From the NCBI GenBank assembly GCA_016794145.1, contig JAEUKP010000008.1, forward strand, positions 21,199 to 85,198: a stretch of 64,000 nucleotides of DNA. Reading direction: 5' to 3'. Source of the stretch: Alphaproteobacteria bacterium (GTDB lineage Bacteria > Pseudomonadota > Alphaproteobacteria > Micavibrionales > Micavibrionaceae). The position numbers and the translations under genes are program-made. Of the stretch, positions 367 to 60,160 are shown in pieces (within the stretch, counting starts at the first letter, position 1; every line of letters starts with the position of its first letter). Under the pieces are notes generated by a model. The model ran no database searches. It was not told the origin of the DNA and worked only from the letters and a program-made list of their open reading frames with translations.

Positions 367-504
367 AATGTAGATCCTCTGTGTTAAAGTAATATATAAT
401 GTGGGTTTTGATGCAGAGCTTATACGGACTTCACCCCCAAAAGACAAGCCCCACCCCCACGAAAAACGGCGACCCAACCCTGTATTTTTCATTAGTCATG
501 CGCA

Positions 505-536
505 AATCGCATAACAAAAATGCAATAATCGCATAA
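505..536. promoter_or_regulatory. two direct copies of AATCGCATAA with starts 22 bp apart, in the ndk / orphan-gene intergenic region
   Basis: AATCGCATAA occurs at 505-514 and 527-536, about two helical turns apart, within an AT-rich divergent promoter region. This is a candidate operator only; no binding factor is known. Confidence 0.25.
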
Positions 537-689
537 TTTTGCTTGCACTCTGCAAAAAAATCAGGAAATATATAACCGTTAGTTTGTTTTTTACTTGATT
601 TCGATACAGCAATTCACTTATGCTGATGTAAGGAAATTGCAAATTAAGAGATAAAGACGACATTATAGAAGCAAAGGAGGATTGTCAGA

Positions 690-1706
690 ATGGCGGGTAT
701 TTCATTTTTACAAAAAGCATCTCAAGACGCACGCCAACTTCCCGAAATTATTTGCCCTACAAATCGCCTTACATTAGAAGAAGTCCTTATATCCCTCCAA
801 GAAGGAAAAACCGAACCACGCCAGCCTCATGATTTTATTGACGGTTTAGGATCAGAATCCCAAATCGCAAAAGCTGTATTCCGGTCAACCATCCTTCCTG
901 TTTTGAAAGATATTTTAGCCTCCCACATCATTAAAGATGGCCCGAAAAAAAATCCGGAACGAGTTGCAGATAAAGTTGCCGGAAAACTGGATTTAGATAT
1001 TGATCACATTCAAGAATACAAAGCCTCCGGTGATATTCACTATGGCCTCAATTGCGATTATATCCGCGATTCACAACTTGTTGGAGGAATGAACTTTATT
1101 AGAAGAGCCAGCGACTTGTTCCAAGGCCCCGGCGTATTGAGACTATCCAAAAATGGCGGCCAACCAGTTGATATTTTTATTCTGGACGTTGAAAACGGCT
1201 TTGTGGAAGAAGTCGCTCATAAACCAAAATTAAAACGCATAAACCTCAAGCTTGCCATTCCCATTTCCCTTGCGGATGGCACACGGACATTCCACGTTTT
1301 GGAACACAAAATCTACCTTAAAGCCTCGCAACAAAACGAGAGCGAGGGAACGAGAGCTTGGGGCGATCTGCGCACACTCCAAAAGCAAGAAAATTTACTA
1401 CAAGCTGCCTTTGATCAGGTTGCAGGAAATTCCCCAGAAGCGGCTAGTCTGTTGAATGAATTTATGGAAGTCGCAGCCCAAAAAGAGGCTATGGCCAAGT
1501 ATAGGAAAGAAATCAACGCCCGCGATGAGTCCATAAAAGGTATCCATGCCCTCACGGGATATAAACCGGAGACAACCGAAGGAAAAGTGCGCGATTTAAC
1601 ATGGGGCTTCACTCCACTGCAGACTGTTGTAGCTGATATTTTAGAAAAAAATTCAGCCCCCGAAACCATAAACCCTCCTTCTACATACGACCTTAAAATG
1701 GCTTAG
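690..1706 (+). CDS. hypothetical protein (orphan, no motif recognised)
   Basis: 338-aa ORF with a strong SD (AAAGGAGG, 673-680) upstream of the ATG. I recognise no family signature, signal peptide or TM segment. Confidence 0.6.
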   Translation: MAGISFLQKASQDARQLPEIICPTNRLTLEEVLISLQEGKTEPRQPHDFIDGLGSESQIAKAVFRSTILPVLKDILASHIIKDGPKKNPERVADKVAGKLDLDIDHIQEYKASGDIHYGLNCDYIRDSQLVGGMNFIRRASDLFQGPGVLRLSKNGGQPVDIFILDVENGFVEEVAHKPKLKRINLKLAIPISLADGTRTFHVLEHKIYLKASQQNESEGTRAWGDLRTLQKQENLLQAAFDQVAGNSPEAASLLNEFMEVAAQKEAMAKYRKEINARDESIKGIHALTGYKPETTEGKVRDLTWGFTPLQTVVADILEKNSAPETINPPSTYDLKMA

Positions 1707-1769
1707 CCAAGCCGTTCGGACATAAAATATCGGGTTTCTTTTTCTAAATACTCAGACTAAACTGCTGCC

Positions 1770-3401
1770 ATGACACATCCCATGGCGCAGGCCCCTCTCC
1801 TTTCTGTTCAGAATTTGACCGTGCGGTTTCAAACACCGGATGGGGTGTTTGATGCAGTCAAGGGCGTTAATTTCACCTTGGAAAAAGGCCAAACACTGGC
1901 CTTGGTCGGGGAGTCGGGATCGGGAAAATCGGTTACGGCCCTGTCTTTGTTGCAATTATTGCCCTACCCTTTGGCCTCGCACCCCACCGGATCCATCCTG
2001 TTCAACGGGCAGGAACTGGTCGGAGCCTCCCCCGCCACGCTGCAATCACTGCGTGGCGATAAAATCGGCATGATTTTTCAGGAACCTTTGTCGTCCCTCA
2101 ATCCGTTGCATACGATTGGCAAACAGATCGGCGAAGTCATTACCCTGCACAATCCCGCACTGAGCAAAGACCAGATCGACCAACGCGTTCTGGAATTAAT
2201 GGATATGGTCGGGCTGTCGTCTTTAAAATCCCGCCGGACAGCCTATCCGCATGAATTATCCGGAGGGCAACGCCAACGTGTGATGATTGCCATGGCGTTG
2301 GCCAACACACCGGATATCCTGATTGCCGATGAACCCACCACAGCACTGGATGTCACCGTCCAAGCCCAGATTCTGGAACTGTTGCAATCTCTGCGGGACA
2401 CATTGGGCATGGCTCTGATTCTGATCAGCCATGATTTGAATGTGGTTGAAAAAATGTGTGACCATATCTGCGTCATGAAACACGGAGAGATTGTCGAAAG
2501 TCGCAGCACGGCCGATCTGTTCCGGAATCCCCAGCACAGCTACACCCGACAATTATTGGCCTCTGCCCCGCGTCCGTCGCCCATTCCATCCAACCAGAAC
2601 GCGCCGGTTCTTCTCGATGCCCACGATATCTGCGTGTCATTTCCGACAAAGAAAACATTCTTCGGAAAAGTTATCGAACGTGTCACCGCCGTCGATCATA
2701 TCTCGTTCCAACTGCGCGAAAAGCAAACCTTGGGCGTGGTGGGGGAATCCGGATCGGGGAAAACAACTCTTGCTCTGGCCGTTTTAAAATTGATTGCCGC
2801 GACGGGGTCACTCACCTTCGAAGGACACGATATTACCGCGATAAAAGGCGCAGATCTCCGCGCTCTGCGTGCCCGTATGCAAGTCGTGTTTCAAGATCCG
2901 TTTGGATCCCTCTCTCCACGCATGAGCATTGCCCAGATTATCGGCGAAGGATTAACCGTTCATGCGCCCCACCTCACCGCCAGCGAGCGGGATGACCGCG
3001 TGGTACAGGCGTTGGATCGTGTGCGTCTGGATCCGGCTACACGTCACCGTTACCCGCATGAATTTTCGGGAGGCCAGCGCCAGAGAATCTCTATCGCCCG
3101 CGCCCTGATCCTCGAACCAAAATTGATCATTCTGGACGAACCCACATCGGCACTGGATGTCTCGGTACAGGCGCAAGTCGTCGAGTTATTGCAGGATTTA
3201 CAAGACCGCCTGAACCTGTCCTATATGTTTATCAGCCACGATTTGCGCGTGGTGCGCGCCATGGCGCATGATATTATTGTCATGAAGCATGGCCATGTTG
3301 TCGAGCACGGCCCTGCGGCACAAGTTTTTGATACACCGGCAGAGCCCTACACCCGCGCTTTGATGGATGCCGCCCTTCACCTGCGCACAGGTCACGCCTA
3401 A
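1770..3401 (+). CDS. yejF: ABC transporter ATP-binding protein with duplicated ATPase domains (YejF / oligopeptide-microcin C type)
   Basis: Two Walker A motifs (GESGSGKS, GESGSGKT), two LSGGQRQR signatures and two Walker B motifs (ILIADEPTTALD, LIILDEPTSALD). Length of 543 aa is typical of YejF. Confidence 0.8.
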   Translation: MTHPMAQAPLLSVQNLTVRFQTPDGVFDAVKGVNFTLEKGQTLALVGESGSGKSVTALSLLQLLPYPLASHPTGSILFNGQELVGASPATLQSLRGDKIGMIFQEPLSSLNPLHTIGKQIGEVITLHNPALSKDQIDQRVLELMDMVGLSSLKSRRTAYPHELSGGQRQRVMIAMALANTPDILIADEPTTALDVTVQAQILELLQSLRDTLGMALILISHDLNVVEKMCDHICVMKHGEIVESRSTADLFRNPQHSYTRQLLASAPRPSPIPSNQNAPVLLDAHDICVSFPTKKTFFGKVIERVTAVDHISFQLREKQTLGVVGESGSGKTTLALAVLKLIAATGSLTFEGHDITAIKGADLRALRARMQVVFQDPFGSLSPRMSIAQIIGEGLTVHAPHLTASERDDRVVQALDRVRLDPATRHRYPHEFSGGQRQRISIARALILEPKLIILDEPTSALDVSVQAQVVELLQDLQDRLNLSYMFISHDLRVVRAMAHDIIVMKHGHVVEHGPAAQVFDTPAEPYTRALMDAALHLRTGHA

Positions 3402-3484
3402 GCCACGTCATCACTTAAGCCAAATAAGAAAACCTGTTCATGATTTTTTATATACTTCGTTCGGTTAATGACCCGAAAAAAGAG

Positions 3485-3570
3485 CCCCCTCACCCCTCCC
3501 TCTCCCCGTGGGGGAGAGGGCAACGCAGGCTTAAGGCTGTAAGCCTTTAGCCGAAGTCGGGTGAGGGGGG
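3485..3570. repeat. palindromic repeat element, long variant (outer arms CCCCCTCACCC...GGGTGAGGGGG)
   Basis: Outer inverted arms enclose the hairpin CCCTCTCCCCGTGGGGGAGAGGG and a second AGGCTTA..TAAGCCT hairpin. It is the same family as 47583-47729 in the opposite orientation. It lies between the convergent genes yejF and traX-like. Confidence 0.8.
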
Positions 3571-3713
3571 CGAGTTCATAAAAATAAGCGCATTTTATTT
3601 GACGTAGGCTATAACAGTTTTCTTCGTGCGCTTTGTGGTGAAAAAAAGAATAGGTCACGCGAAGGTCGCAAAGAATTTTCCCTCTCGCACATCGGGGGAC
3701 GACACACCCTCAA

Positions 3714-4529
3714 CTACCCTTTTCCCGCCGGAAATAATGTCGGGGCGAAGGCGTGCACTCCTGCATCGGCATAAAGCAGATAGGCTTTGATCGCCAACAA
3801 ATGAAACACATAGATTTCCAAAGTATACCGCCCGCAAAAACGAATGATCCCGCTCACAGGGCGCGGGAAAAATTCTGTCAGCTTCGGGAATTCTGCAGGC
3901 CGGAACGTAAAAAACATGGCGCAACAAATAACCACAATCCCGATGCCAGTTACCAAAGATTGTGGCCTATTAAATCCGAAAAGAAAGACTTCTATTCCTG
4001 CCACAGCAAAAGATGCTACCACCGCATATAACGACAATCCCCATGCGGGGATGGGTATTCTCTCGCGCTGACGCATCCCGTAACCAATCAATCCCAATAA
4101 AATCGCCAGACTGCCATATTCAAACAAGGCGTTGGTGGGGATAGATAAAATCACCAACGCCACCACGGCATAAATCACTGGCTCGGCCCCTTTGAAGGTC
4201 ATCTCGCCAAAGCGCGGCATCGCCAAGCGGATCACAATAAACGACACCAACGCATTCAACGGCAAGGTATATTGCCCCAAAATCATATTTCCAACGATCA
4301 GTAACCCCGCACCGGCCCATAATTTTGGTTCGATAGAGTAGTTGCGGGCATATCCGGCCAGAATGAACCAGACCGGAAATCCAAAACGGCCAAACACGCG
4401 CCACCACGGCTCGTCCGGCAGGAAATACGCGCCCACATGGTCGATCAGCATAAAGACAAGTGTCGCCGCTTTCACCAGATCGTAACTGGTAATCACAGCG
4501 GGCAAATGATCGTTGCGTTTAAAAAACAT
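3714..4529 (-). CDS. TraX-family integral membrane protein
   Basis: 271-aa polytopic membrane protein. Its N-terminus (DLVKAATLVFMLIDHVGAYF) matches, as far as I recall, the TraX-family motif (K..A...M.iDH.g). Confidence 0.5.
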   Translation of the reverse strand: MFFKRNDHLPAVITSYDLVKAATLVFMLIDHVGAYFLPDEPWWRVFGRFGFPVWFILAGYARNYSIEPKLWAGAGLLIVGNMILGQYTLPLNALVSFIVIRLAMPRFGEMTFKGAEPVIYAVVALVILSIPTNALFEYGSLAILLGLIGYGMRQRERIPIPAWGLSLYAVVASFAVAGIEVFLFGFNRPQSLVTGIGIVVICCAMFFTFRPAEFPKLTEFFPRPVSGIIRFCGRYTLEIYVFHLLAIKAYLLYADAGVHAFAPTLFPAGKG

Positions 4530-4541
4530 CCTAGCCGATCC

Positions 4542-7394
4542 CTATAAAAAATTCTGCGGATCAATATCCACAATAACCCTGACGGCAGATGGAATTTTCA
4601 ATCCGCCCAACCATGCGGCAATCATTTTCTGGATATTCAAATTCTTTTCGGCGCGGATCAAAATCCGTTGACGATATTGTCCCCGTATCCGGTACATTTG
4701 CGCAGGCGCAGGCCCCAAGACCTGAACCCCTTCCACACGGGGAGCCGCCCGCCCGATCATCACCGCAATCTCTTTGGTGTGCGTTTCATCTTTTCCCGTA
4801 ATAACCAGCGCCGCCAAACGCGAAAAAGGTGGCATCCTGGCGATATGACGTTCGGCGGCTTCGGCTTCCAGAAACGCATCCCGATCATCCGCCGCAATCA
4901 TCTGCATCACACGTTGTTCGGCATTATAGGTTTGCAGGAAAACGCGCCCCTTTAAATGTTCACGCCCCGCGCGCCCCGCCACCTGATGCAACAATTGATA
5001 ACTCCGCTCTGTGGCGCGTAAATCTCCCCCGCTCAACCCCAAATCGGCATCTATAATACCGACACACGTAATCTGGGGAAAGTGATGCCCCTTGGCAATA
5101 ATTTGTGTGCCGATAATAATATCTACCTCGCCATTCTTGATGGCATCCAACGCCGCAATTAATTTGTCATGCGTATCTGTGATATCACTCGCCAAAATCA
5201 GGGAACGGGCTTCGGGGAAATATTCTTTAACCTCTTCGGCAATGCGCTCGACCCCCGGGCCACAGGCGACCAACGACTCCGGCTCGTGGCATTCGGGGCA
5301 CGCAACCGGAATGGGCATGGAAAATCCACAATGATGGCATTGTAAATGCGGCGGCGCATAATGGGTGCGCCGATGCTCGACCAACCATGCCGTACATTTG
5401 GGGCATTCCATGCGATGCCCGCAACTGCGGCAGAGCGTCAGCGGCGCAAAACCCCGCCGGTTCAAAAACAATAAAGCTTGCTGCTTGGCCGCCAATGTTT
5501 TCCGCACTTCCTCAATCACAACAGGAGATAAGAAATGTTGCCGTTCCGGTTTATCCACCCGTAAATCCACAATGCGAATATCGGGCTTGCTGGCGCCTCC
5601 GTAACGATCCGGCAATGACAGAAGGGTATACCGCCCTTCCCATACATTCTGCATGGTCTCGAGCGACGGGGTGGCCGATGCCAACACCACCGGAATTTTA
5701 CCCAGATGCGCCCGCACCACCGCCATATCGCGCGCGTTGTAAATCGTGCCCTCTTCTTGTTTGAACGCCGGATCATGCTCTTCATCCACCACGATCATGT
5801 GCAAATCGGCATAGGGCAAAAACAACGCGGATCGCGCCCCGACAACAACTTTGGTTTGACCCGTCACAATGCTCCGCCATGTCAGACGGCGTTGTGCCGG
5901 CGTCAAAGATGAATGCCACAGCGCAGGCTTGCCCCCGAAGCGCGCCGCAAAACGTTGAATAAATGCATTGGACAACGCAATTTCCGGCATCAGGATTAAA
6001 ACCTGCCCCCGTTTTTCGGCGATAATTTTGGCGATCGATTCAAAATAAACTTCGGTTTTTCCCGATCCCGTCACCCCATCCAACAAAAAGGCTTCAAATC
6101 CACCGGAATCAATCCGTGCATTGATTTTATCGGTCGCGGTTACTTGCTCCGACGTCAGCGATTTCGGAGCAAAATGCGGATCCGGATGCGCACACGGCGC
6201 GTTGGCGAAAATATCAATCGCTTGCAACACACCATGCTTGACAAACGTTTTTATTCGGGACGCACTCAGGCCCGTCGCCTGTGTAATCTCGGATAATCGC
6301 CGCGGAAGACCGTCTTCCAAAAGGGAGATAAGCTTCTCTGCATTCTCACAAAAAGCCCCCTCACCCAACCCTCTCCCCGTTGGGGCGAGGGCTATTCCTT
6401 CTTTAACTCCCTCTCCCCGTGGGGGAGAGGGTTGGGGTGAGGGGGAATCTTCTAAGGAAGACTTTTCCAAATACTCAACAATACGACTTAAAACACCCTC
6501 TTGATTTTCTAAAATCTCATTATTCCAGAAACGAAGAACGAAAAACCCCTGTGCCTCCAATGCCGCATCACGCTGGGCATCATAGGCCGCATTTTCTGCG
6601 TGCTGCCCACCATCCAGTTCCACAATCAATTTTTTTTCGATACAGACAAAATCAGCAATATACGGCGGGATCGGATGCTGCCTACGAAACTTGTACCCTG
6701 CCAAACGTCTATCTTTTAACACATGCCACAGTTTCTTTTCGACATCTGTCTGATTTTGCCGCAAATGAATGGCGTTCTGGATGCAATATGCCGGAGGTTT
6801 TGCATGAAATTCTTTGAGAGGATGAGAATCGCCCCCCTCACCCCTGCCCTCTCCCCCACGGGGAGAGGGAGTTAAAGAAGGAATAGCCCTCGCCCCCACG
6901 GGGAGAGGGTTGGGTGAGGGGGAATCTTGTGAGGGGGAATCTTGTGAGGGGGAATCTTGTGAATAGGAAGCCCTTTCCCCCAATATATACCCCGTCATTG
7001 GCTGGGCTGGCTCCAACGCCTGCGGCACGGATACCGCCATTTTCAGCACAGATCCCCGCCGTTCCATATTATATGTCGCAACCCAGTCGATAAATTGCCG
7101 CTGGACGGCCTCCATCGGCGGGAGATCATGCCTCACCAGAACAGATTTCAACTTAGAGGATGGAATAACATCCCCGCCAGACTCCCCGCCCTCTGCCACA
7201 GCCCAGACAACCCCATGCGCCACGCGCGGCCCCAAAGGAACGCTGACATAATCGCCCAGCGCCAATTCCATACCTTCGGGAATCAGGTAATCATAGGCTT
7301 TTTCAACCGGAGACGTGACCAAAATACTGCAAACGGACATCTTGCATTCCTGTAACGAGAAAGGCATGATGCCCTTATTCTTCATCTTTGACAA
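4542..7394 (-). CDS. priA: primosomal replication-restart helicase PriA carrying an in-frame ~200-aa insertion (DUF559 nuclease domain plus translated palindromic repeats)
   Basis: PriA N-terminus [21 protein letters not shown] (the likely true start is M19 at 7340). Walker A is GVTGSGKT and the DEEH box is VVDEEHD. The Cys-rich zinc region (CRSCGH..CPKC..CHHCG..CPEC) is intact. The ORF is 950 aa, and the residues from about 144 to 347 are foreign to PriA. Confidence 0.9.
6356..6445. repeat. palindromic repeat element, short variant (left flank of the DUF559 cassette)
   Basis: CCCCCTCACCCAA-CCCTCTCCCCGTTGGGGCGAGGG-C-TATTCCTTCTTTAAC-T-CCCTCTCCCCGTGGGGGAGAGGG-TTGGGGTGAGGGGG. This comprises outer arms plus two internal hairpins. 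It is translated within priA as ...[29 protein letters not shown]... Confidence 0.9.
6832..6922. repeat. palindromic repeat element, short variant, inverted copy (right flank of the DUF559 cassette)
   Basis: By hand alignment, its reverse complement differs from 6356-6445 by about three substitutions and one extra G. The central spacer GTTAAAGAAGGAATA is the exact reverse complement of TATTCCTTCTTTAAC. Confidence 0.9.
6916..6960. repeat. perfect 15-bp tandem repeat x3 (GAGGGGGAATCTTGT) at the outer edge of the cassette
   Basis: Units lie at 6916-6930, 6931-6945 and 6946-6960. The first unit overlaps the terminal arm of the palindromic element. On the minus strand it encodes (SQDSP)x3 in PriA. 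Confidence 0.95.
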
Positions 7395-54446: not shown

Positions 54447-54523
54447 GTAGATATTTTTAACAAAATATTGACATAATTAAAAAATAACTATACCCTCTCT
54501 TCAAGAAATAGAAAGAGGGGCAC

Positions 54524-55690
54524 ATGCAAAAAAAACGACAAATTGATAAGGGAGATATCATCACTGATCTTTTGGGATCAAAGGGTTATGCTGAGGTTAA
54601 CTCTCCTGATTCCTTGGCTGCAAATCTGGATGTGCTTCTTCGTATTCCAACTCTTACGGCCAAAGAGTTGGCTATCGCTCTTTATCATTCTACAAAAGGG
54701 GCCTTAAATGGTCGCTATGGTGAAAACCAGAAACCTGCACTTGATGTTATAAAAAGCCATGTGCAAACTTGGACTGATTGCGCTCTCAGGAAAAAAGAGT
54801 ATACGGGCTATACAATAGCGCACATGCTGGATGGATTTGCTCATTTAAACCTTCGCCCACCGGAACGATTTGTTTCGTTTGCTTTAGAAAAAGCCAAAAA
54901 CTTAATATCTGGTTTCAATGCAGATGACATAGTATTTTTTTCGCACGCTGTCGCGCATCTCGGTATTTTACCTGACAAAAAATTATTAATCGCAATGGGG
55001 GATAGGATTCGTAGTTCTCGGAGCTCTTTTTCCCCTCACCAATTGCACTCTCTTATGCGATCATTGGCGGTGCTTGATTGCTTATCTGTGCATCACCATG
55101 TCTCAAAACGATATTCTTTTGGTTCGTTATTTTCAGAGCTATTAAATGATGGCAGCATAAGAGCAAAAATTGCGTCCGTAACGGATGCTGATTGTAAAGC
55201 GATGTTATCAGATGCCATTTTGTGGTTCAAAGGAAGCACTCCATATGCGCGTCCTTCTGAGTCTGATACTTCATCACTTTTTGAAAGTGATATGGCTGAC
55301 GAATTAAGGGAATCTGGTGCTCGTGTAAACAATGGAGTTTCGATCCAAACCCCTAATCATATTGTAGATCTGTCTGCCACATTTGGACAGGCCACATTTT
55401 TTGTGGAGTGTGATGGTCCTACCCATTTTGTGCACGGGGCAGATGATCATAAAGTTTATTTAAATGGTTCCACAATTTTTCAAACGGCTCTTATCCGAAA
55501 AGGAAATCCCGATAAAAGCCTTGTGCGTATTCCAATAGATGTTTGTTATCCAAAACGTGGAGATCGAGATTTTTGGGATAGTTTCCTTCTGGCGGCAAGT
55601 GAAGCGCAGGTTGGGGCCTATTGCCTTAGTCCTAATGGAAAACTTCTTCCTGTCTGTGATGGTTATGCCCCTCCCGCAGGCTATGCTTGA
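54524..55690 (+). CDS. FASTK-like helical-repeat protein with a C-terminal RAP-type (Vsr-like PD-(D/E)XK) domain
   Basis: C-terminal HIVDLSATFGQATFFVECDGPTHFVHGADDHKVYLNGSTIFQTALIRKGNPDKSLVRIPIDV fits the RAP pattern (vD..{8-12}..iEvDGPsHF....L.G.T.lK.R.L...G..Vv.IP). Upstream are leucine-rich helical repeats of FAST_1/2 style (IAHMLDGFAHLNLRPPERFV; IVFFSHAVAHLGILPDKKLL; LHSLMRSLAVLDCLS). Confidence 0.55.
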   Translation: MQKKRQIDKGDIITDLLGSKGYAEVNSPDSLAANLDVLLRIPTLTAKELAIALYHSTKGALNGRYGENQKPALDVIKSHVQTWTDCALRKKEYTGYTIAHMLDGFAHLNLRPPERFVSFALEKAKNLISGFNADDIVFFSHAVAHLGILPDKKLLIAMGDRIRSSRSSFSPHQLHSLMRSLAVLDCLSVHHHVSKRYSFGSLFSELLNDGSIRAKIASVTDADCKAMLSDAILWFKGSTPYARPSESDTSSLFESDMADELRESGARVNNGVSIQTPNHIVDLSATFGQATFFVECDGPTHFVHGADDHKVYLNGSTIFQTALIRKGNPDKSLVRIPIDVCYPKRGDRDFWDSFLLAASEAQVGAYCLSPNGKLLPVCDGYAPPAGYA

Positions 55691-55737: not shown

Positions 55738-56775
55738 GTGAGAATCTTATATGTCGGAAATTCGGGGGGATTGGAAAATACAGCAAGATTTTATCTCTTT
55801 CCACCCCGCCTCATCAACGGATTTATAAGGAACGGTCATCAGGTTCAAGTCTTTAACGACAAAGATGTTGCCAGGCTATCGAACCCCTTCCGATCCAGTC
55901 GCTTGGGGCTCGCCAAAACAAACGCATTGTTACTGAACCATTGCCGTGAGTATATGCCTGAATTGGTTATTTTGGCGCATTGCCAGTTCATAGAAAACGA
56001 GACTGTTTCGGAAATCAGAAAAATATGTCCCCATGTCAAAGTGATTCACCTCAATGTTGATCCGTTATCAGACAGAGAGAATTGTGCCCGCATTCAAAAC
56101 AGGGTCGGATCTGTGGACGGTATTTTCATCACAACAGCTGGTCAAGCTCTTCAACCATTTTCCAACACATTTACCTTCGCAGCTTTTATTCCAAACCTTG
56201 TAGATTTATCGATTGATACAGGGAAAGCCTTTGAAACAAAAGAATTTACCACAGATTTATTCTTTGCAGCCGGAGCGATGAGAGAAGACGACCATCGCAA
56301 AGATCTTGTTTTAAAACTCTTACAGAAAACATCTGGCTTATCCATCGATATTTATGGGGCCGGAATTAATGACCGAAAAATTTTCGGGATGGCTTATATC
56401 AATAAATTAGCCTCTGCAAAAATGGGGCTTGTTATTAACAAGACAGAAGATTATTACCTGTATGCATCGGATAGAATGTCCCAATATATGGCAAACGGAC
56501 TCCTTGTATTTGCACATACCAAACCACGGTATACGGACCTATTCCATGCAGATGAATTTATCAGTTATGAAACCGTCGATGATTTGATTGAAAAAGTGAA
56601 TTATTATCATACCCATGATGAAGAGCGGATTACGATCGCAAAAAAAGGGTATGAGAAAATTCATGAAATTTTTCACAACCAACTGGTCGCAGACTATGTC
56701 ATAGATACAGTTTTTCACCGTAAAACCAGATCCTATCCATGGCCGTCAGAGCAATATAAAGGCGGATACACATGA
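55738..56775 (+). CDS. glycosyltransferase (CgeB/DUF3880-like, GT1-type C-terminal domain)
   Basis: MRILYVGN... N-terminal Rossmann half. The C-terminal YLYASDRMSQYMANGLLVFAH...FISYETVDDLIEKVNYY..DEERITIAKKGYEKI resembles CgeB-type GT tails. GTG start. Confidence 0.6.
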   Translation: MRILYVGNSGGLENTARFYLFPPRLINGFIRNGHQVQVFNDKDVARLSNPFRSSRLGLAKTNALLLNHCREYMPELVILAHCQFIENETVSEIRKICPHVKVIHLNVDPLSDRENCARIQNRVGSVDGIFITTAGQALQPFSNTFTFAAFIPNLVDLSIDTGKAFETKEFTTDLFFAAGAMREDDHRKDLVLKLLQKTSGLSIDIYGAGINDRKIFGMAYINKLASAKMGLVINKTEDYYLYASDRMSQYMANGLLVFAHTKPRYTDLFHADEFISYETVDDLIEKVNYYHTHDEERITIAKKGYEKIHEIFHNQLVADYVIDTVFHRKTRSYPWPSEQYKGGYT

Positions 56776-57821
56776 GGAAAAACAGTTATAAGATAGCCTT
56801 AGTTGATTGTACAAAAAGCATTTATAACGAAGAAATATCTTCTGGAATGGCCCTTGGGGGGATTGAGCGATGTATTATTTCTCTGTCTCGGGCTCTATCT
56901 AACAAAGGTCATGACGTTCAAGTATTTGCACATGAACAATCCGAAAGTCATCATAACAATATCCGATGGGTTTCTAAATCACACCCAACCCCTTTCAAAG
57001 CAGATATTGTAATTGCCTGTAATGATCCAAAACTTTTTGATCTTTATGCTACAAACTCTAATCACTCCGGGTTTCAGGCATTTCTATGGCACCATAATCC
57101 CGTGGGTTTTTGGAAAACCCTCCGGAAAGGACGCCTTCTCCCTCTGTTAAAATGGAACCCAACGCATATTCTTTTAGGGACGGATCATCTTCTAACTTAT
57201 CCAAAGTGCCTGTCGTTTCAGAAGAAAATGATTATTGAACACGGGATTGAAGATAGTATTCTGGATTTTTCCCGGTCCTTGTCCGACTCTTCTCCACGAC
57301 CACCTCATGCGGCCTTTATCTCTCAAGCCTATAGAGGACTAGAAAATGTCATTGATCTTTGGAAGAAATATGTCTTTCCAGAATTTCCAAGCGCCAAATT
57401 ATTTATCTACAGCACCTATCCCGCTAAAGATAATAGTCTTGAATCATTTGGCATTACAATTCAAGGAAGATTGCCACGTCAGGATCTCCTCAACGAACTT
57501 TCAACAAAAAGAATAACACTTATCCCAGGACATGAAGATGAAACCTTTTGTTTATCGGCCATTGAAAGCCAATGTCTGGGGCTCCCTGTTATCTCATTCG
57601 GAATTGGGGCACTGAAAGAACGTATTCAAAATCAAGATGACGGTTTTTTGGTCAGCAGTGAAAAAGATTTTGCTGAAAAAATACTACTCCTCCTAAAAAA
57701 CGATGATGTCTGGTTAAGAATGAGTCAAAAAGCAAAAGAACATAACCTTACAGCCGCATGGTCTTATAAAGCAACACTCTGGGAATCTCTCTTTGAGGAT
57801 AATAATAATGATCAGGAATAG
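56772..57821 (+). CDS. glycosyltransferase family 4 (GT-B, E-x7-E)
   Basis: GGIERCIISLSRALSNKGHDVQVF is the N-terminal half. The C-terminal half is ETFCLSAIESQCLGLPVISFGIGALKERIQNQDDGFLV. An ATGA overlap links it to the upstream GT. Confidence 0.8.
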   Translation: MRKNSYKIALVDCTKSIYNEEISSGMALGGIERCIISLSRALSNKGHDVQVFAHEQSESHHNNIRWVSKSHPTPFKADIVIACNDPKLFDLYATNSNHSGFQAFLWHHNPVGFWKTLRKGRLLPLLKWNPTHILLGTDHLLTYPKCLSFQKKMIIEHGIEDSILDFSRSLSDSSPRPPHAAFISQAYRGLENVIDLWKKYVFPEFPSAKLFIYSTYPAKDNSLESFGITIQGRLPRQDLLNELSTKRITLIPGHEDETFCLSAIESQCLGLPVISFGIGALKERIQNQDDGFLVSSEKDFAEKILLLLKNDDVWLRMSQKAKEHNLTAAWSYKATLWESLFEDNNNDQE

Positions 57822-59043
57822 TCTTCTTACTCTCCAGATAGAACCTGTCCAAAAATTATATCAGGAAAATCGATCCTTATTCTTATCATCTCTTTTTATT
57901 CCTGTGATTGCACCATTATTTTTTTATTGTCCTACATCAATTTTACGCACACTATTCTATATCTCTATTCCATTTCTTGTTACATTAGTGATCAAGAACA
58001 AACAGGCCATTTGGGGCCTGTTGTCGCAGGATAAAATAACATGGGGGGTCTTGGCTTTATTTTCCGTGTACATGAGCACCTCTGTCCTCTGGTCATCGGA
58101 TGCCGAGATTTCTCGTTATTTTTCAAAAGGAAAATTATCTCTTATTCTCGGCCTGACGACGATTTCAACTTTTTATATCTCGTATCGATTTCCAAAATTT
58201 TCTGACATTCTAAAAAATTCCTATATTTTGGGGGCAACATCATCCGCTATTATCCTCATCATTCATTATCTTTTAACCCATGGATTTTCTCTCCCCACAG
58301 AGAGATTGGAAGGCCTTGGAAGAGCCACAAACCCTGTTCAGGCATCGCTCCTTTACGGGCTGGCAGTGATTGCAATCATTTTTGGGAAACTTCCATTCCA
58401 GCATACCCGTCGGCAAGTTTATATTCTAAAAATGGCAATGATACTGCCCTCTCTTGTTATTATTTTGATGACTCAATCAAGAGGTCCCTTTCTTGCTCTT
58501 CTCCTCACTCTTGTGATCATTTTTATTCTTCAATCGCGAAATAGGATTAAAGCTTTTTCATGCGGCCTGATTGCGATTATACTGGTGTCTGTTTCTGTTT
58601 ATGGGGCTTTTAAAAACACAGATATTCTAAACCGGAAAACGACAGGCCGTTTTCAAATCTGGCAAACAGCAATCAGCCAAATCAAAGAGCACCCAATCAT
58701 TGGCCATGGTCTTGCGACCAATAACCGTTACCATTATACAAAAGATGATGGAACTGTGATGGAGGCGAGCCATATCCACAGCCTATACCTTAGCACCGCC
58801 TTCCAAGGGGGCCTTATCGGCCTTGGGCTTTTGATCTGGATCTATTATTTATTCGCCATAAAATACATAGACCTTATTCGAAAGAAGGTGATGGATCACA
58901 TGTGGATTGGTGGCTGGGTTTTGATGGGCGCAGCATTCGGGATTGCGGACTTTGGGGGAATCGTGATCAACCTCAGCACTGAATGGCTGGTTTTCTGGTG
59001 GCCCATCGGACTTCTATGGGGGCAAATGGCACGCAGACCTTAA
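57808..59043 (+). CDS. O-antigen ligase/polymerase-family membrane protein (Wzy_C)
   Basis: About 10-12 TM segments, with LMTQSRGPFLALLLTL and a periplasmic loop GHGLATNN...ASHIHSLYLSTAFQGGLIG typical of the family. ATG 57808 follows GAGGA. Confidence 0.8.
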   Translation: MIRNSLLTLQIEPVQKLYQENRSLFLSSLFIPVIAPLFFYCPTSILRTLFYISIPFLVTLVIKNKQAIWGLLSQDKITWGVLALFSVYMSTSVLWSSDAEISRYFSKGKLSLILGLTTISTFYISYRFPKFSDILKNSYILGATSSAIILIIHYLLTHGFSLPTERLEGLGRATNPVQASLLYGLAVIAIIFGKLPFQHTRRQVYILKMAMILPSLVIILMTQSRGPFLALLLTLVIIFILQSRNRIKAFSCGLIAIILVSVSVYGAFKNTDILNRKTTGRFQIWQTAISQIKEHPIIGHGLATNNRYHYTKDDGTVMEASHIHSLYLSTAFQGGLIGLGLLIWIYYLFAIKYIDLIRKKVMDHMWIGGWVLMGAAFGIADFGGIVINLSTEWLVFWWPIGLLWGQMARRP

Positions 59044-59047
59044 GGCT

Positions 59048-60160
59048 TTAGGCGATACCACAGTGCCCCGAAAAATTCGGGCTCTGCGGCACAGTCGATT
59101 CCATTATGAAGGCCTGAGCACAGTTTTCTGTCCCCCTCCCTGCGCAATTGAACAGAGGAACAAGAACATAACGATTCCCCTTGTCTTTTTGTTCTTGAGC
59201 GGCAGAAGTGATGAGGCCCTCAATTTTTTCTTTCGCACCCTCATCTCCATCCAAGAAGACAAAGAGAGCTTGATACAATTCAGATTTTTGGGCTGCAAGC
59301 ATCTCGTTTATAAGAGCACGATCACGAGCTTCCGCCAATGAAACTATCTGCCCTGGATCCAATTTTTCAAGAATGACACCAAGAATAGAAGGAGCCTCAT
59401 CAAACTCAAAAATAGTCTCCCACTGACCTGCTTCAGACATCATTGAAATCCAGTTTTCCGGCTTAAGGTGCGCTGCCAGAGCCCCATTTAAAGGGGTGCT
59501 ATTGTCTAGAAGAAAATTCGTTAATAAATTTTGCTCTGATAGTTCCTGTGCAATATCCTCAGATGGCACCCCCTCTAAGAAAGCATTTATTCTATCATTG
59601 ATCGAACCATCCTCTTCTTTGATCCAAGGACTCCAGCAAATTACCGTGCGAAGAAGGGTCTTTTTAAAAACATCCAGATAGGCTCCCGCAGAAACGGCCT
59701 CAATATCCTTGCGTAAAATCGGAATCGCACCGAATTTACCATTTAGTATTGCCAACTGGATTAAAGATTCAAGATTTGCTTTTTTCTCAGCCTGATTATG
59801 GTGCGCCAAAACCTCATTTACACGGTCAGAAAGGGTTGGTAAATCAGAAAAGATGAGGGGATCTCTTATTTCATTTTCGAGTAACTCTTTATAATCATCA
59901 CCCAAAAAAACCCGCATATAACGGATATGTTCTGGGGTCAGGAAACTGATAATATGTTGAAAAGGAGTGATCCCACCTACCTCGTAGGAATAAAAAAATT
60001 CCATACGGTCTTCATCAGACCCAAGAGTCAGAAGAAAATCTCTTAAGTCCTGTGCACTACCAGGACCCTCTTTAGGAAACTTCTGATAAAAGGCTTTGTG
60101 AGCAGACAGCAATTTGCGTTCGGCCCAAAATTCGAAAACGCGCGCCAGGCCAAGAATCAT
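59048..60160 (-). CDS. hypothetical protein (370 aa, orphan)
   Basis: Long ORF with helical-looking composition. No signal peptide or TM segment, and no recognised motif. Confidence 0.55.
   Translation of the reverse strand: MILGLARVFEFWAERKLLSAHKAFYQKFPKEGPGSAQDLRDFLLTLGSDEDRMEFFYSYEVGGITPFQHIISFLTPEHIRYMRVFLGDDYKELLENEIRDPLIFSDLPTLSDRVNEVLAHHNQAEKKANLESLIQLAILNGKFGAIPILRKDIEAVSAGAYLDVFKKTLLRTVICWSPWIKEEDGSINDRINAFLEGVPSEDIAQELSEQNLLTNFLLDNSTPLNGALAAHLKPENWISMMSEAGQWETIFEFDEAPSILGVILEKLDPGQIVSLAEARDRALINEMLAAQKSELYQALFVFLDGDEGAKEKIEGLITSAAQEQKDKGNRYVLVPLFNCAGRGTENCAQAFIMESTVPQSPNFSGHCGIA

Follow-up and report, generated by a model that had tools for sequence, protein, structure and literature searches.

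The 64,000-nucleotide stretch analyzed here (the window; part of contig JAEUKP010000008.1 from a member of the Micavibrionaceae, Alphaproteobacteria) contains a complete open reading frame (ORF) that runs from ATG to stop exactly at positions 54524-55690 of the plus strand and encodes a protein of 388 amino acids (aa). This protein is truly homologous to the eukaryotic FASTK and OPR/HPR-RAP proteins, shares their domain order, and belongs to a large bacterial family that carries its own version of the RAP signature, termed type A. We judge it somewhat better than an even chance that this bacterial OPR/HPR-FAST-RAP member has a conflict-related role as a nucleic-acid-guided endonuclease, with RNA as its probable substrate. 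A first-pass annotation made from the DNA letters had described the product as a eukaryote-type FASTK/RAP-like protein, possibly acquired horizontally and perhaps acting on the organellar RNA of a host; the homology and the domain order bear out the likeness, but a recent import from eukaryotes is not supported, since the bacterial family is large and deeply diverged. Proteins of the FASTK, RAP, OPR, and HPR types are central to mitochondrial and plastid RNA processing and are large, aggregation-prone, and hard to study; to our knowledge, no RNA-recognition code is known for them, and RAP catalysis is still debated.

Homology and architecture of the 388-aa protein

As a single sequence, the protein gave sub-threshold matches to the Pfam models FAST_1 (E = 0.0063, aa 142-191, 16.8 bits against a cut-off of 27.4) and RAP (PF08373; E = 0.041, aa 294-326, 14.3 bits against a gathering cut-off of 24.2), the latter beginning at aa 294, on the E-x-D-G-x-x-H motif, and its best three phmmer matches in the PDB were all "RAP domain-containing proteins" (E = 0.05-0.19). 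Profiles built from the family were significant. An alignment of 12 close homologues, all unnamed (A1), matched the Trypanosoma RAP-domain protein RESC6 at 4.1e-9 in the PDB. An exhaustive profile search of 1.84 billion representatives retrieved 1110 relatives at E ≤ 1e-3, with 350 at E ≤ 1e-10, and the profile of an alignment of 80 relatives of about 400 aa (A2) matched RESC6 at 5.4e-16, RESC8 at 8e-8, Chlamydomonas mL115 at 2e-7, Polytomella mL123 at 2e-6, five Toxoplasma gondii RAP proteins at about 1e-5, and FASTKD4 at 3e-3. Pfam FAST_1 was matched by 14 of the 80 A2 members (best 2.5e-16) and Pfam RAP by five (E ≤ 0.01). Among 30 long, multi-repeat proteins found with the same profile, one of them from the chlorarachniophyte Norrisiella, 28 matched FAST_1 and 19 matched RAP (best 5e-18). 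Because the sub-threshold single-sequence matches all agree and the family profiles are significant, chance resemblance is disfavored. One limit is that the 388-aa protein itself stays below the Pfam thresholds. The sequence matches to solved relatives span the repeats only, the RAP parts lying beyond the reach of a hidden Markov model (HMM)-to-sequence search. The 37-aa repeat model DUF1601, built from Coxiella proteins, was matched by four of the 80 type-A members and by 17 of the 30 canonical long relatives. Most likely, DUF1601 and the OPR/HPR repeat are two names for one motif.

The AlphaFold2 model of the full protein (predicted local distance difference test, pLDDT, 81.3; predicted template-modeling score, pTM, 0.75) shows an alpha-solenoid, its helices lying between aa 9 and aa 236, and then an alpha-beta-beta-beta-alpha-beta-alpha-beta domain at aa 252-376. 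When this model was searched against the PDB with Foldseek, nearly all matches were organellar helical-repeat or RAP proteins, among them the T. gondii mitoribosomal chains 9i05_Xi (9.6e-5) and 9i05_Xl, RESC6, and mitoribosomal proteins of Chlamydomonas, Polytomella, and Tetrahymena; human FASTKD4 (FAST1-FAST2-RAP, 9gek) ranked 14th with 365 aligned columns. On the full-length fold, structure and family profiles agree. The top matches all had a probability of 1.00 with low TM-scores (0.3-0.4), as expected because the solenoids are flexible. A viral structure library returned no significant match.

The solenoid begins with an N-terminal helical region (aa 1-92, positions 54524-54799, plus strand as for all features of the ORF), of which the first ∼27 aa are variable and the rest form degenerate helical hairpins (modeled helices 9-17, 28-40, 46-61, and 69-88). 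Three 38-aa repeats of the OPR/HPR type follow in register: repeat 1 (aa 93-130, 54800-54913), which stacks with the others on the pattern F-x-p-x-x-l-x-x-x-L-x-A-F-a-x-L-g-x-x-P and aligns to the RESC6 repeats; repeat 2 (aa 131-168, 54914-55027), which overlaps the FAST_1 match and is the most allele-variable of the three; and repeat 3 (aa 169-206, 55028-55141), which likewise shows repeat stacking. Connecting helices (aa 207-250, 55142-55273) with a family-wide W234-F235 lead to the C-terminal domain. The family consensus of the repeat, F-s/n-p-x-d-l-x-x-x-L-x-A-h-A-x-L-g-h-x-P, is the OPR/HPR motif of the canonical relatives, as described in the literature (PMC7729196). The three leucine-rich, FAST-style helical segments pointed out in the first-pass annotation are present. 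The two halves differ in isoelectric point (pI), the solenoid being basic at 9.3 and the nuclease part acidic at 4.75, and no signal-peptide-like or transmembrane segment was found in any of the 80 family members.

The C-terminal part (aa 251-376, 55274-55651) is, by the AlphaFold2 model and by hhalign, an alpha-beta-beta-beta-alpha-beta PD-(D/E)XK domain composed of a FAST_2-equivalent half plus the RAP motif. The FAST_2-equivalent alpha1-beta1-beta2 segment aligns with the pre-RAP region of canonical proteins. The peptides reported earlier as the RAP hallmark are real, the stretch HIVDLSATFGQATFFVECDGPTHF...NGSTIFQTALIRKG...LVRIPIDV being present in the ORF. Over the 80 members E254, D282, E295, D297, G298, H301, G315, T317, and R335 are each at least 90% conserved. 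They include the acidic residue of the first nuclease helix (S251-x-x-E254, codon 55283-55285), the strand-2 aspartate D282 (codon 55367-55369), which is aligned with the canonical RAP/FAST_2 aspartate and is probably equivalent to Vsr D51 and FASTKD4 D523, and the key positions of E295-C-D297-G-P-T-H301 (55406-55426), the E-x-D-G-x-x-H hallmark of RAP and DUF559, whose DNA is identical in the three alleles compared below and which is present in most family sequences retrieved. In Vsr the key pair is D51/H69, and in FASTKD4, which is inactive, it is D523/N570 (PMC11879112). The example of FASTKD5, a true endoribonuclease, shows that the family can be active (PMC12242768). That the type-A proteins have kept the Asp, Glu, and His residues suggests that they too are active enzymes.

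The specific relationship of this domain was assessed by aligning the C-terminal domains of 84 type-A sequences, using hhalign, with canonical RAP C-termini led by a Pfam-verified RAP protein (P0065). The match had a probability of 98.6% (E = 8e-16, 98 columns) with S251-x-x-E254, D282, E295-x-D297-G-x-x-H301, G315-x-T317, and R335-I-P337 in register, and single canonical RAP sequences gave 86-98% (E 5e-6 to 1e-14). In comparison, the DUF559 domain of priA in the same window reached 0.6-32% (best E = 5e-4 over 51 columns), and the Pfam DUF559 and Vsr models matched neither the 388-aa protein nor any of the 80 family members. On these profiles the domain is closer to canonical RAP than to the DUF559 domain of the same genome, and it does not group with ordinary bacterial DUF559/Vsr proteins, a grouping that the first-pass annotation had named as part of what would refute its reading. 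A separate model of aa 245-388 (pLDDT 79) matched only generic PD-(D/E)XK nucleases by fold (AF1548, splicing endonuclease, R2 RLE, McrC, Bax1, Hjc, and I-Ssp6803I), and Vsr, 3hrl, and 3r3p were not among its Foldseek matches. Such a search cannot separate RAP from Vsr; the modeled fold confirms the PD-(D/E)XK class, and the RAP link rests on the profiles. The priA ORF used for this comparison (4542-7394, minus strand, 950 aa) does carry the nuclease insertion that had been noted earlier: a full DUF559 (Vsr-like) domain at aa 205-309 (E = 4e-43), situated between the 3'-DNA-binding domain and the helicase core.

Several known systems resemble the protein in part. Like the human FASTK family (FASTK and FASTKD1-5, with FASTKD4 9gek and FASTKD5 as examples), it has HPR/FAST_1 repeats followed by a Vsr-like PD-(D/E)XK domain ending in a RAP motif; unlike them, it is about half the size, is bacterial, has no mitochondrial presequence, and has a FAST_2 part undetectable by Pfam. 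Its RAP signature is NG-x-T-x-FQTAL...R-I-P in place of the G-x-T-x-LK-x-R-x-L...G-W-x-V-x-x-(V/I)-P-x-x-EW of FASTK, and it keeps the histidine that FASTKD4 has replaced by N570. The best likeness in both sequence and structure is to trypanosome RESC6/RESC8 and to apicomplexan and algal mitoribosomal RAP/HPR/OPR proteins (8fn4_6; 9i05_Xi, Xl; 9g6k_Ld; 7pkt_O, P; 8a22_Xd), which share a 37-38-aa hairpin with the consensus F-x-x-Q-x-x-x-N-x-L-W-A-x-A-x-L-x-x-x-P but are nucleus-encoded, organellar, mostly structural or RNA-stabilizing, and richer in repeats. The present gene is neither nucleus-encoded nor organelle-targeted in a eukaryote; its place is on a bacterial chromosome, flanked by dsbB on one side and glycosyltransferase genes on the other. 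With the Vsr/DUF559/I-Bth0305I clade it has in common the core topology and the D...E-x-D-G-x-x-H motif, over which the priA DUF559 domain aligns with it, but it differs by its N-terminal solenoid and by the weak profile match (32%, E = 5e-4, 51 columns).

Family distribution and strain-level variation

At least 80 clusters of proteins of about 400 aa share the solenoid-plus-RAP architecture and a RAP signature of their own. Type A (E-x-DGP-x-HF...NG-x-T-x-FQ[TS]AL...[IL]R[IL]P) accounts for 83 of the best 159 sequences, mostly of ∼400 aa; the second signature in the family is the canonical EVDGPSHF...G-x-T-x-LK-x-R-x-L...GW-x-V-x-x-[VI]P-x-x-EW. When 185,579 species-representative genomes were scanned with a degenerate DNA motif and the matches verified by the family HMM, 19 of the 27 loci returned were confirmed, all in metagenome-assembled genomes (MAGs; seven Micavibrio, seven Alphaproteobacteria, one Rhodospirillaceae, and four "Pseudomonadota"). 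The eight others (Paracoccus, Nitrospirota, and others) were chance matches that the HMM did not confirm. The named cluster members are all "hypothetical protein" entries from Micavibrio, Alphaproteobacteria, or Pseudomonadota MAGs, one being labeled Pseudobdellovibrionaceae, where NCBI files Micavibrio, and the closest match to the gene in the genome collection (91%) comes from an uncultured Micavibrio. Cultured Micavibrio are epibiotic predators of bacteria, not of eukaryotes.

Close relatives keep the gene order dsbB, gene, two glycosyltransferase genes, and wzy, and dsbB still adjoins the gene at 60% identity. Other members lie between rplT/HAD and pheS/pheT (L004 included), some of them inside the rpmI-rplT/pheS-pheT translation cluster, or beside dnaX. 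Several family genomes hold tandem copies or fused double modules. One protein, P0042, has two E-x-DG-x-x-H motifs; HMMER matched P0039 and P0042 in two stretches each, and P0055 is also listed as a fused double module. Locus L009 has a family ORF of ∼880 aa (1928-4573) beside a second one (4671-6152), and other relatives stand in tandem arrays. Such fused modules and arrays indicate repeated local duplication. In two diverged genomes, L036/L037 (6824-9179, a tandem pair; upstream genes rpmI-rplT-YCII-HAD) and L004 (5070-8146), family members occupy the same spot, between an ORF of HAD size and pheS-pheT. In L034, genes for a phage capsid, a T7-type capsid, and a head-tail connector (407-4224) lie 4-8 kb upstream of the P0008 homologue, so that this family member has a prophage, or what is left of a phage, close by.

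Compared with strain L032, eight of nine neighboring genes are 97.7-100% identical, with nonsynonymous divergence (dN) at or below 0.011; the gene itself is 83.7% identical (dN 0.097; synonymous divergence, dS, 0.163; dN/dS 0.59). It is 91% identical between the window and L039 (dN/dS 0.92) and 81% between L032 and L039 (dN/dS 0.76). Over the strain comparisons as a whole, identity is 81-91% and dN/dS 0.55-0.92. The divergence is patchy, setting in just 5' of the start codon and ending before the stop; across the nuclease core (about 55350-55470) the three alleles do not differ in DNA sequence. Amino-acid variability is highest at the N terminus (with a peak at aa 1-27), in repeats 1 and 2, and in the C-terminal tail; the nuclease core varies least. 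A fourth allele (L038; Logan SRR29782982, 4983-6149) has 90% DNA identity confined to the ORF, with a PNPOx gene on one side and the trigger factor gene tig on the other; its flanks are unrelated to the window, and similarity stops at the ORF borders. Either this allele marks a second, paralogous locus, or the ORF was transferred by itself. The four alleles share polymorphic patches in combinations that conflict with one another, which indicates recombination, and the strain-level excess probably arose as old alleles or paralogues were exchanged while selection was diversifying or relaxed. A diversity-generating retroelement was considered as the source of the variation and rejected: the substitution spectrum is not adenine-biased, the variation is spread along the gene, and none of the nine neighboring ORFs scanned encodes a reverse-transcriptase domain.

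Proposed function and competing explanations

In the mechanism we propose, the gene product would be a cytoplasmic protein of ∼44 kDa whose basic alpha-solenoid (the three clear 38-aa repeats plus the degenerate ones) recognizes a nucleic acid, most probably single-stranded RNA by analogy with all characterized relatives. RNA binding would also agree, if indirectly, with the pI of 9.3. The solenoid would present the bound strand to the C-terminal Vsr-like domain, which, with E254, D282, E295, D297, and H301 all kept, is predicted to be an active, target-specific endonuclease. Its targets may be the nucleic acids of prey, phage, or competitors, rather than RNAs processed for housekeeping. A role in conflict appears the most likely one because the allele is mosaic and fast-diverging in near-identical strains, with a variable N terminus, repeats, and tail around an invariant core, and because paralogues occur in tandem.

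A number of results weigh against this interpretation. The 388-aa protein is itself under the Pfam gathering scores for both FAST_1 and RAP, and the FAST_2 model (PF08368) matched neither it nor the 80 members; as the 30 canonical long relatives gave no match either, that model is uninformative here. An HMM of the C-terminal part alone found no solved relative among PDB sequences; the isolated C-terminal model gave no match at E ≤ 0.001 and did not place RAP or Vsr structures on top. The loop that bears H301 is modeled at low confidence (pLDDT <50, residues 299-307). Many eukaryotic RAP proteins are non-catalytic scaffolds, and the endonuclease activity of the family members is a prediction from their sequences; FASTKD4, which shares the fold, is inactive (PMC11879112). 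At deep divergence the gene evolves no faster than dsbB (60% versus 57% identity), its dN/dS is under 1, and the excess seen among strains may reflect recombination among old alleles or paralogues, not continuing positive selection. The argument for conflict is also indirect, since the protein has no PADLOC match (zero defense-protein families at E ≤ 0.1), no partner gene is conserved across the loci compared, and no secretion signal was found.

Three other explanations compete with the RNA-directed conflict nuclease. The protein could be a DNA-targeting nicking or restriction-type nuclease of the Vsr/DUF559 kind, or a free-standing selfish gene resembling a homing endonuclease, with the solenoid reading DNA. 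The matches of the isolated C-terminal model to DNA nucleases (AF1548, R2 RLE, McrC, Bax1, Hjc, and I-Ssp6803I), the DUF559-type residues of E-x-D-G-x-x-H, the mosaic alleles, and the 90%-identical copy bounded by its ORF in an unrelated neighborhood (PNPOx, gene, tig) all fit such a nuclease, but the domain is much nearer to RAP than to DUF559 by profile comparison, and all characterized members with OPR/HPR-type repeats bind RNA (PMC6212722, PMC8635915). No adjacent methyltransferase gene, intron or intein context, or PADLOC match was seen at the locus, and homing would co-convert the flanks, a pattern that the alleles do not show; we regard this explanation as unlikely, if worth keeping in mind. 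We also think it unlikely, and a shade more so, that the protein is a non-catalytic adaptor or scaffold of the kind represented by FASTKD4 and by mitoribosomal RAP/HPR proteins, stabilizing or organizing bacterial RNAs such as rRNA or tRNA precursors as a housekeeping factor. That many of the eukaryotic relatives stabilize RNA or form part of the ribosome structure (PMC11879112), that some family members sit within the rpmI-rplT/pheS-pheT translation cluster, and that the gene is as conserved as dsbB at deep divergence would suit a scaffold; however, the family keeps, almost without variation, the acidic and histidine residues lost in FASTKD4 (where N570 replaces the Vsr histidine), strains that are otherwise near-identical have hypervariable, mosaic alleles of the gene (dN/dS 0.55-0.92), and its variable copy number and location would be unusual for a housekeeping factor.

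Less probable than either is the idea put forward in the first-pass annotation, that the gene derives recently from a eukaryote, or mimics one, and that its product is secreted to act on host organellar RNA. Its closest matches, whether by sequence or by structure, are indeed all eukaryotic organellar proteins, the GC content at third codon positions (GC3, 0.31) is below that of most neighbors, and the bacterial look-alikes include type III secretion system (T3SS) effectors (RipS/SKWP) and proteins of intracellular bacteria (Orientia, Parachlamydia) (PMC7729196, PMC3424549). Set against an import are the large bacterial family with its own RAP variant (83 of the best 159 sequences being type A) and its multiple and tandem copies, the restriction of named members to Micavibrio-like or Alphaproteobacteria MAGs, and the adjacency to dsbB kept at 60% identity. 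An effector is not supported either: no signal peptide was found in the 80 members, and no secretion-system genes adjoin the gene. Bacteria, moreover, are the prey of Micavibrio in culture, and there is no sign that the organism has a eukaryotic host.

A few bacterial and archaeal RAP matches have been noted before (PMC8190603), as have a Parachlamydia RAP protein (PMC3424549) and Orientia OtRAP and the RipS/SKWP T3SS effectors (PMC7729196); a survey of HPR proteins found none in three bacterial genomes (PMC6212722). These bacterial look-alikes (the RAP proteins of Orientia tsutsugamushi and Parachlamydia, Ralstonia RipS/SKWP, T3SS repeat effectors of Xanthomonas and Mesorhizobium, and DUF1601 proteins) have OPR-like repeats and, variably, FAST-like and RAP parts (PMC7729196, PMC3424549, PMC8190603), and they are large, secreted or host-associated, and come from pathogens or symbionts of eukaryotes. 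In contrast, the type-A proteins are compact (∼400 aa), lack a recognizable secretion signal, and are concentrated in Micavibrio-like predators of bacteria. In the literature searched, no paper combined Micavibrio with RAP, FAST, or OPR terms. The scattered bacterial RAP/OPR-like proteins are thus already known, and the compact type-A family appears undescribed so far.

A 388-aa bacterial protein in which the clear repeats number only three and the active site appears intact would offer a manageable system for studying both the recognition code and RAP catalysis. Between strains the recognition half is hypervariable and the nuclease core does not change, which suggests that re-targeting occurs in nature; this is of interest to the study of genetic conflict and perhaps to engineers. 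That the family is broad within the Alphaproteobacteria also has a bearing on the origin of a toolkit regarded as eukaryote-specific. We offer as a decidedly speculative extension that the Micavibrio/alphaproteobacterial OPR-FAST-RAP proteins could be the prokaryotic stock of the eukaryotic organellar FASTK/RAP/OPR/HPR factors, through the mitochondrial ancestor or by early transfer from predatory or parasitic Alphaproteobacteria, and that in bacteria they might be modular, rapidly re-targetable, repeat-guided conflict endonucleases, a natural class of programmable nuclease.

The locus and its neighbors

The window holds one copy of the family. The ORF is preceded by a purine-rich, Shine-Dalgarno-like AAGAGGGG (54513-54520, plus strand), read from the sequence just 5' of the ATG. 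Promoter-like hexamer pairs lie in the 77-bp spacer between dsbB and the gene (54448-54485, plus strand); this is weak evidence, as promoter-like sites in the region are no more numerous than in shuffled sequence and thus no more than compatible with a promoter of its own, and the promoter and terminator scans around the gene gave chance-level results only. No NCBIfam model matched the 388-aa protein. Ordinary chromosomal genes flank it on both sides: hflK, hflC, tRNA-Leu(CAA), and dsbB upstream, and downstream a pair of glycosyltransferase genes, one Wzy/O-antigen-ligase-like gene, a 370-aa ORF lacking annotation, and greA. The GC content of the gene is 0.42 and its GC3 0.31, against about 0.46 for the window. 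Recent horizontal transfer was considered on grounds of composition and set aside, the deviation being mild, shared with the adjacent glycosyltransferase genes, and not decisive.

The 370-aa ORF (59048-60160, minus strand), which lies 3.4 kb away and is the ninth neighbor in the strain comparison, is itself hypervariable (83% identical to its L032 counterpart, dN/dS 1.18) and has no Pfam or PADLOC match. The gene adjoins a moderately variable O-antigen/lipopolysaccharide-type glycosyltransferase/Wzy cluster (55738-59043), and such clusters are a typical recombination hotspot; when the window is compared with L039, the second glycosyltransferase gene (56772-57821, plus strand) is only 92% identical, against 98% for dsbB.

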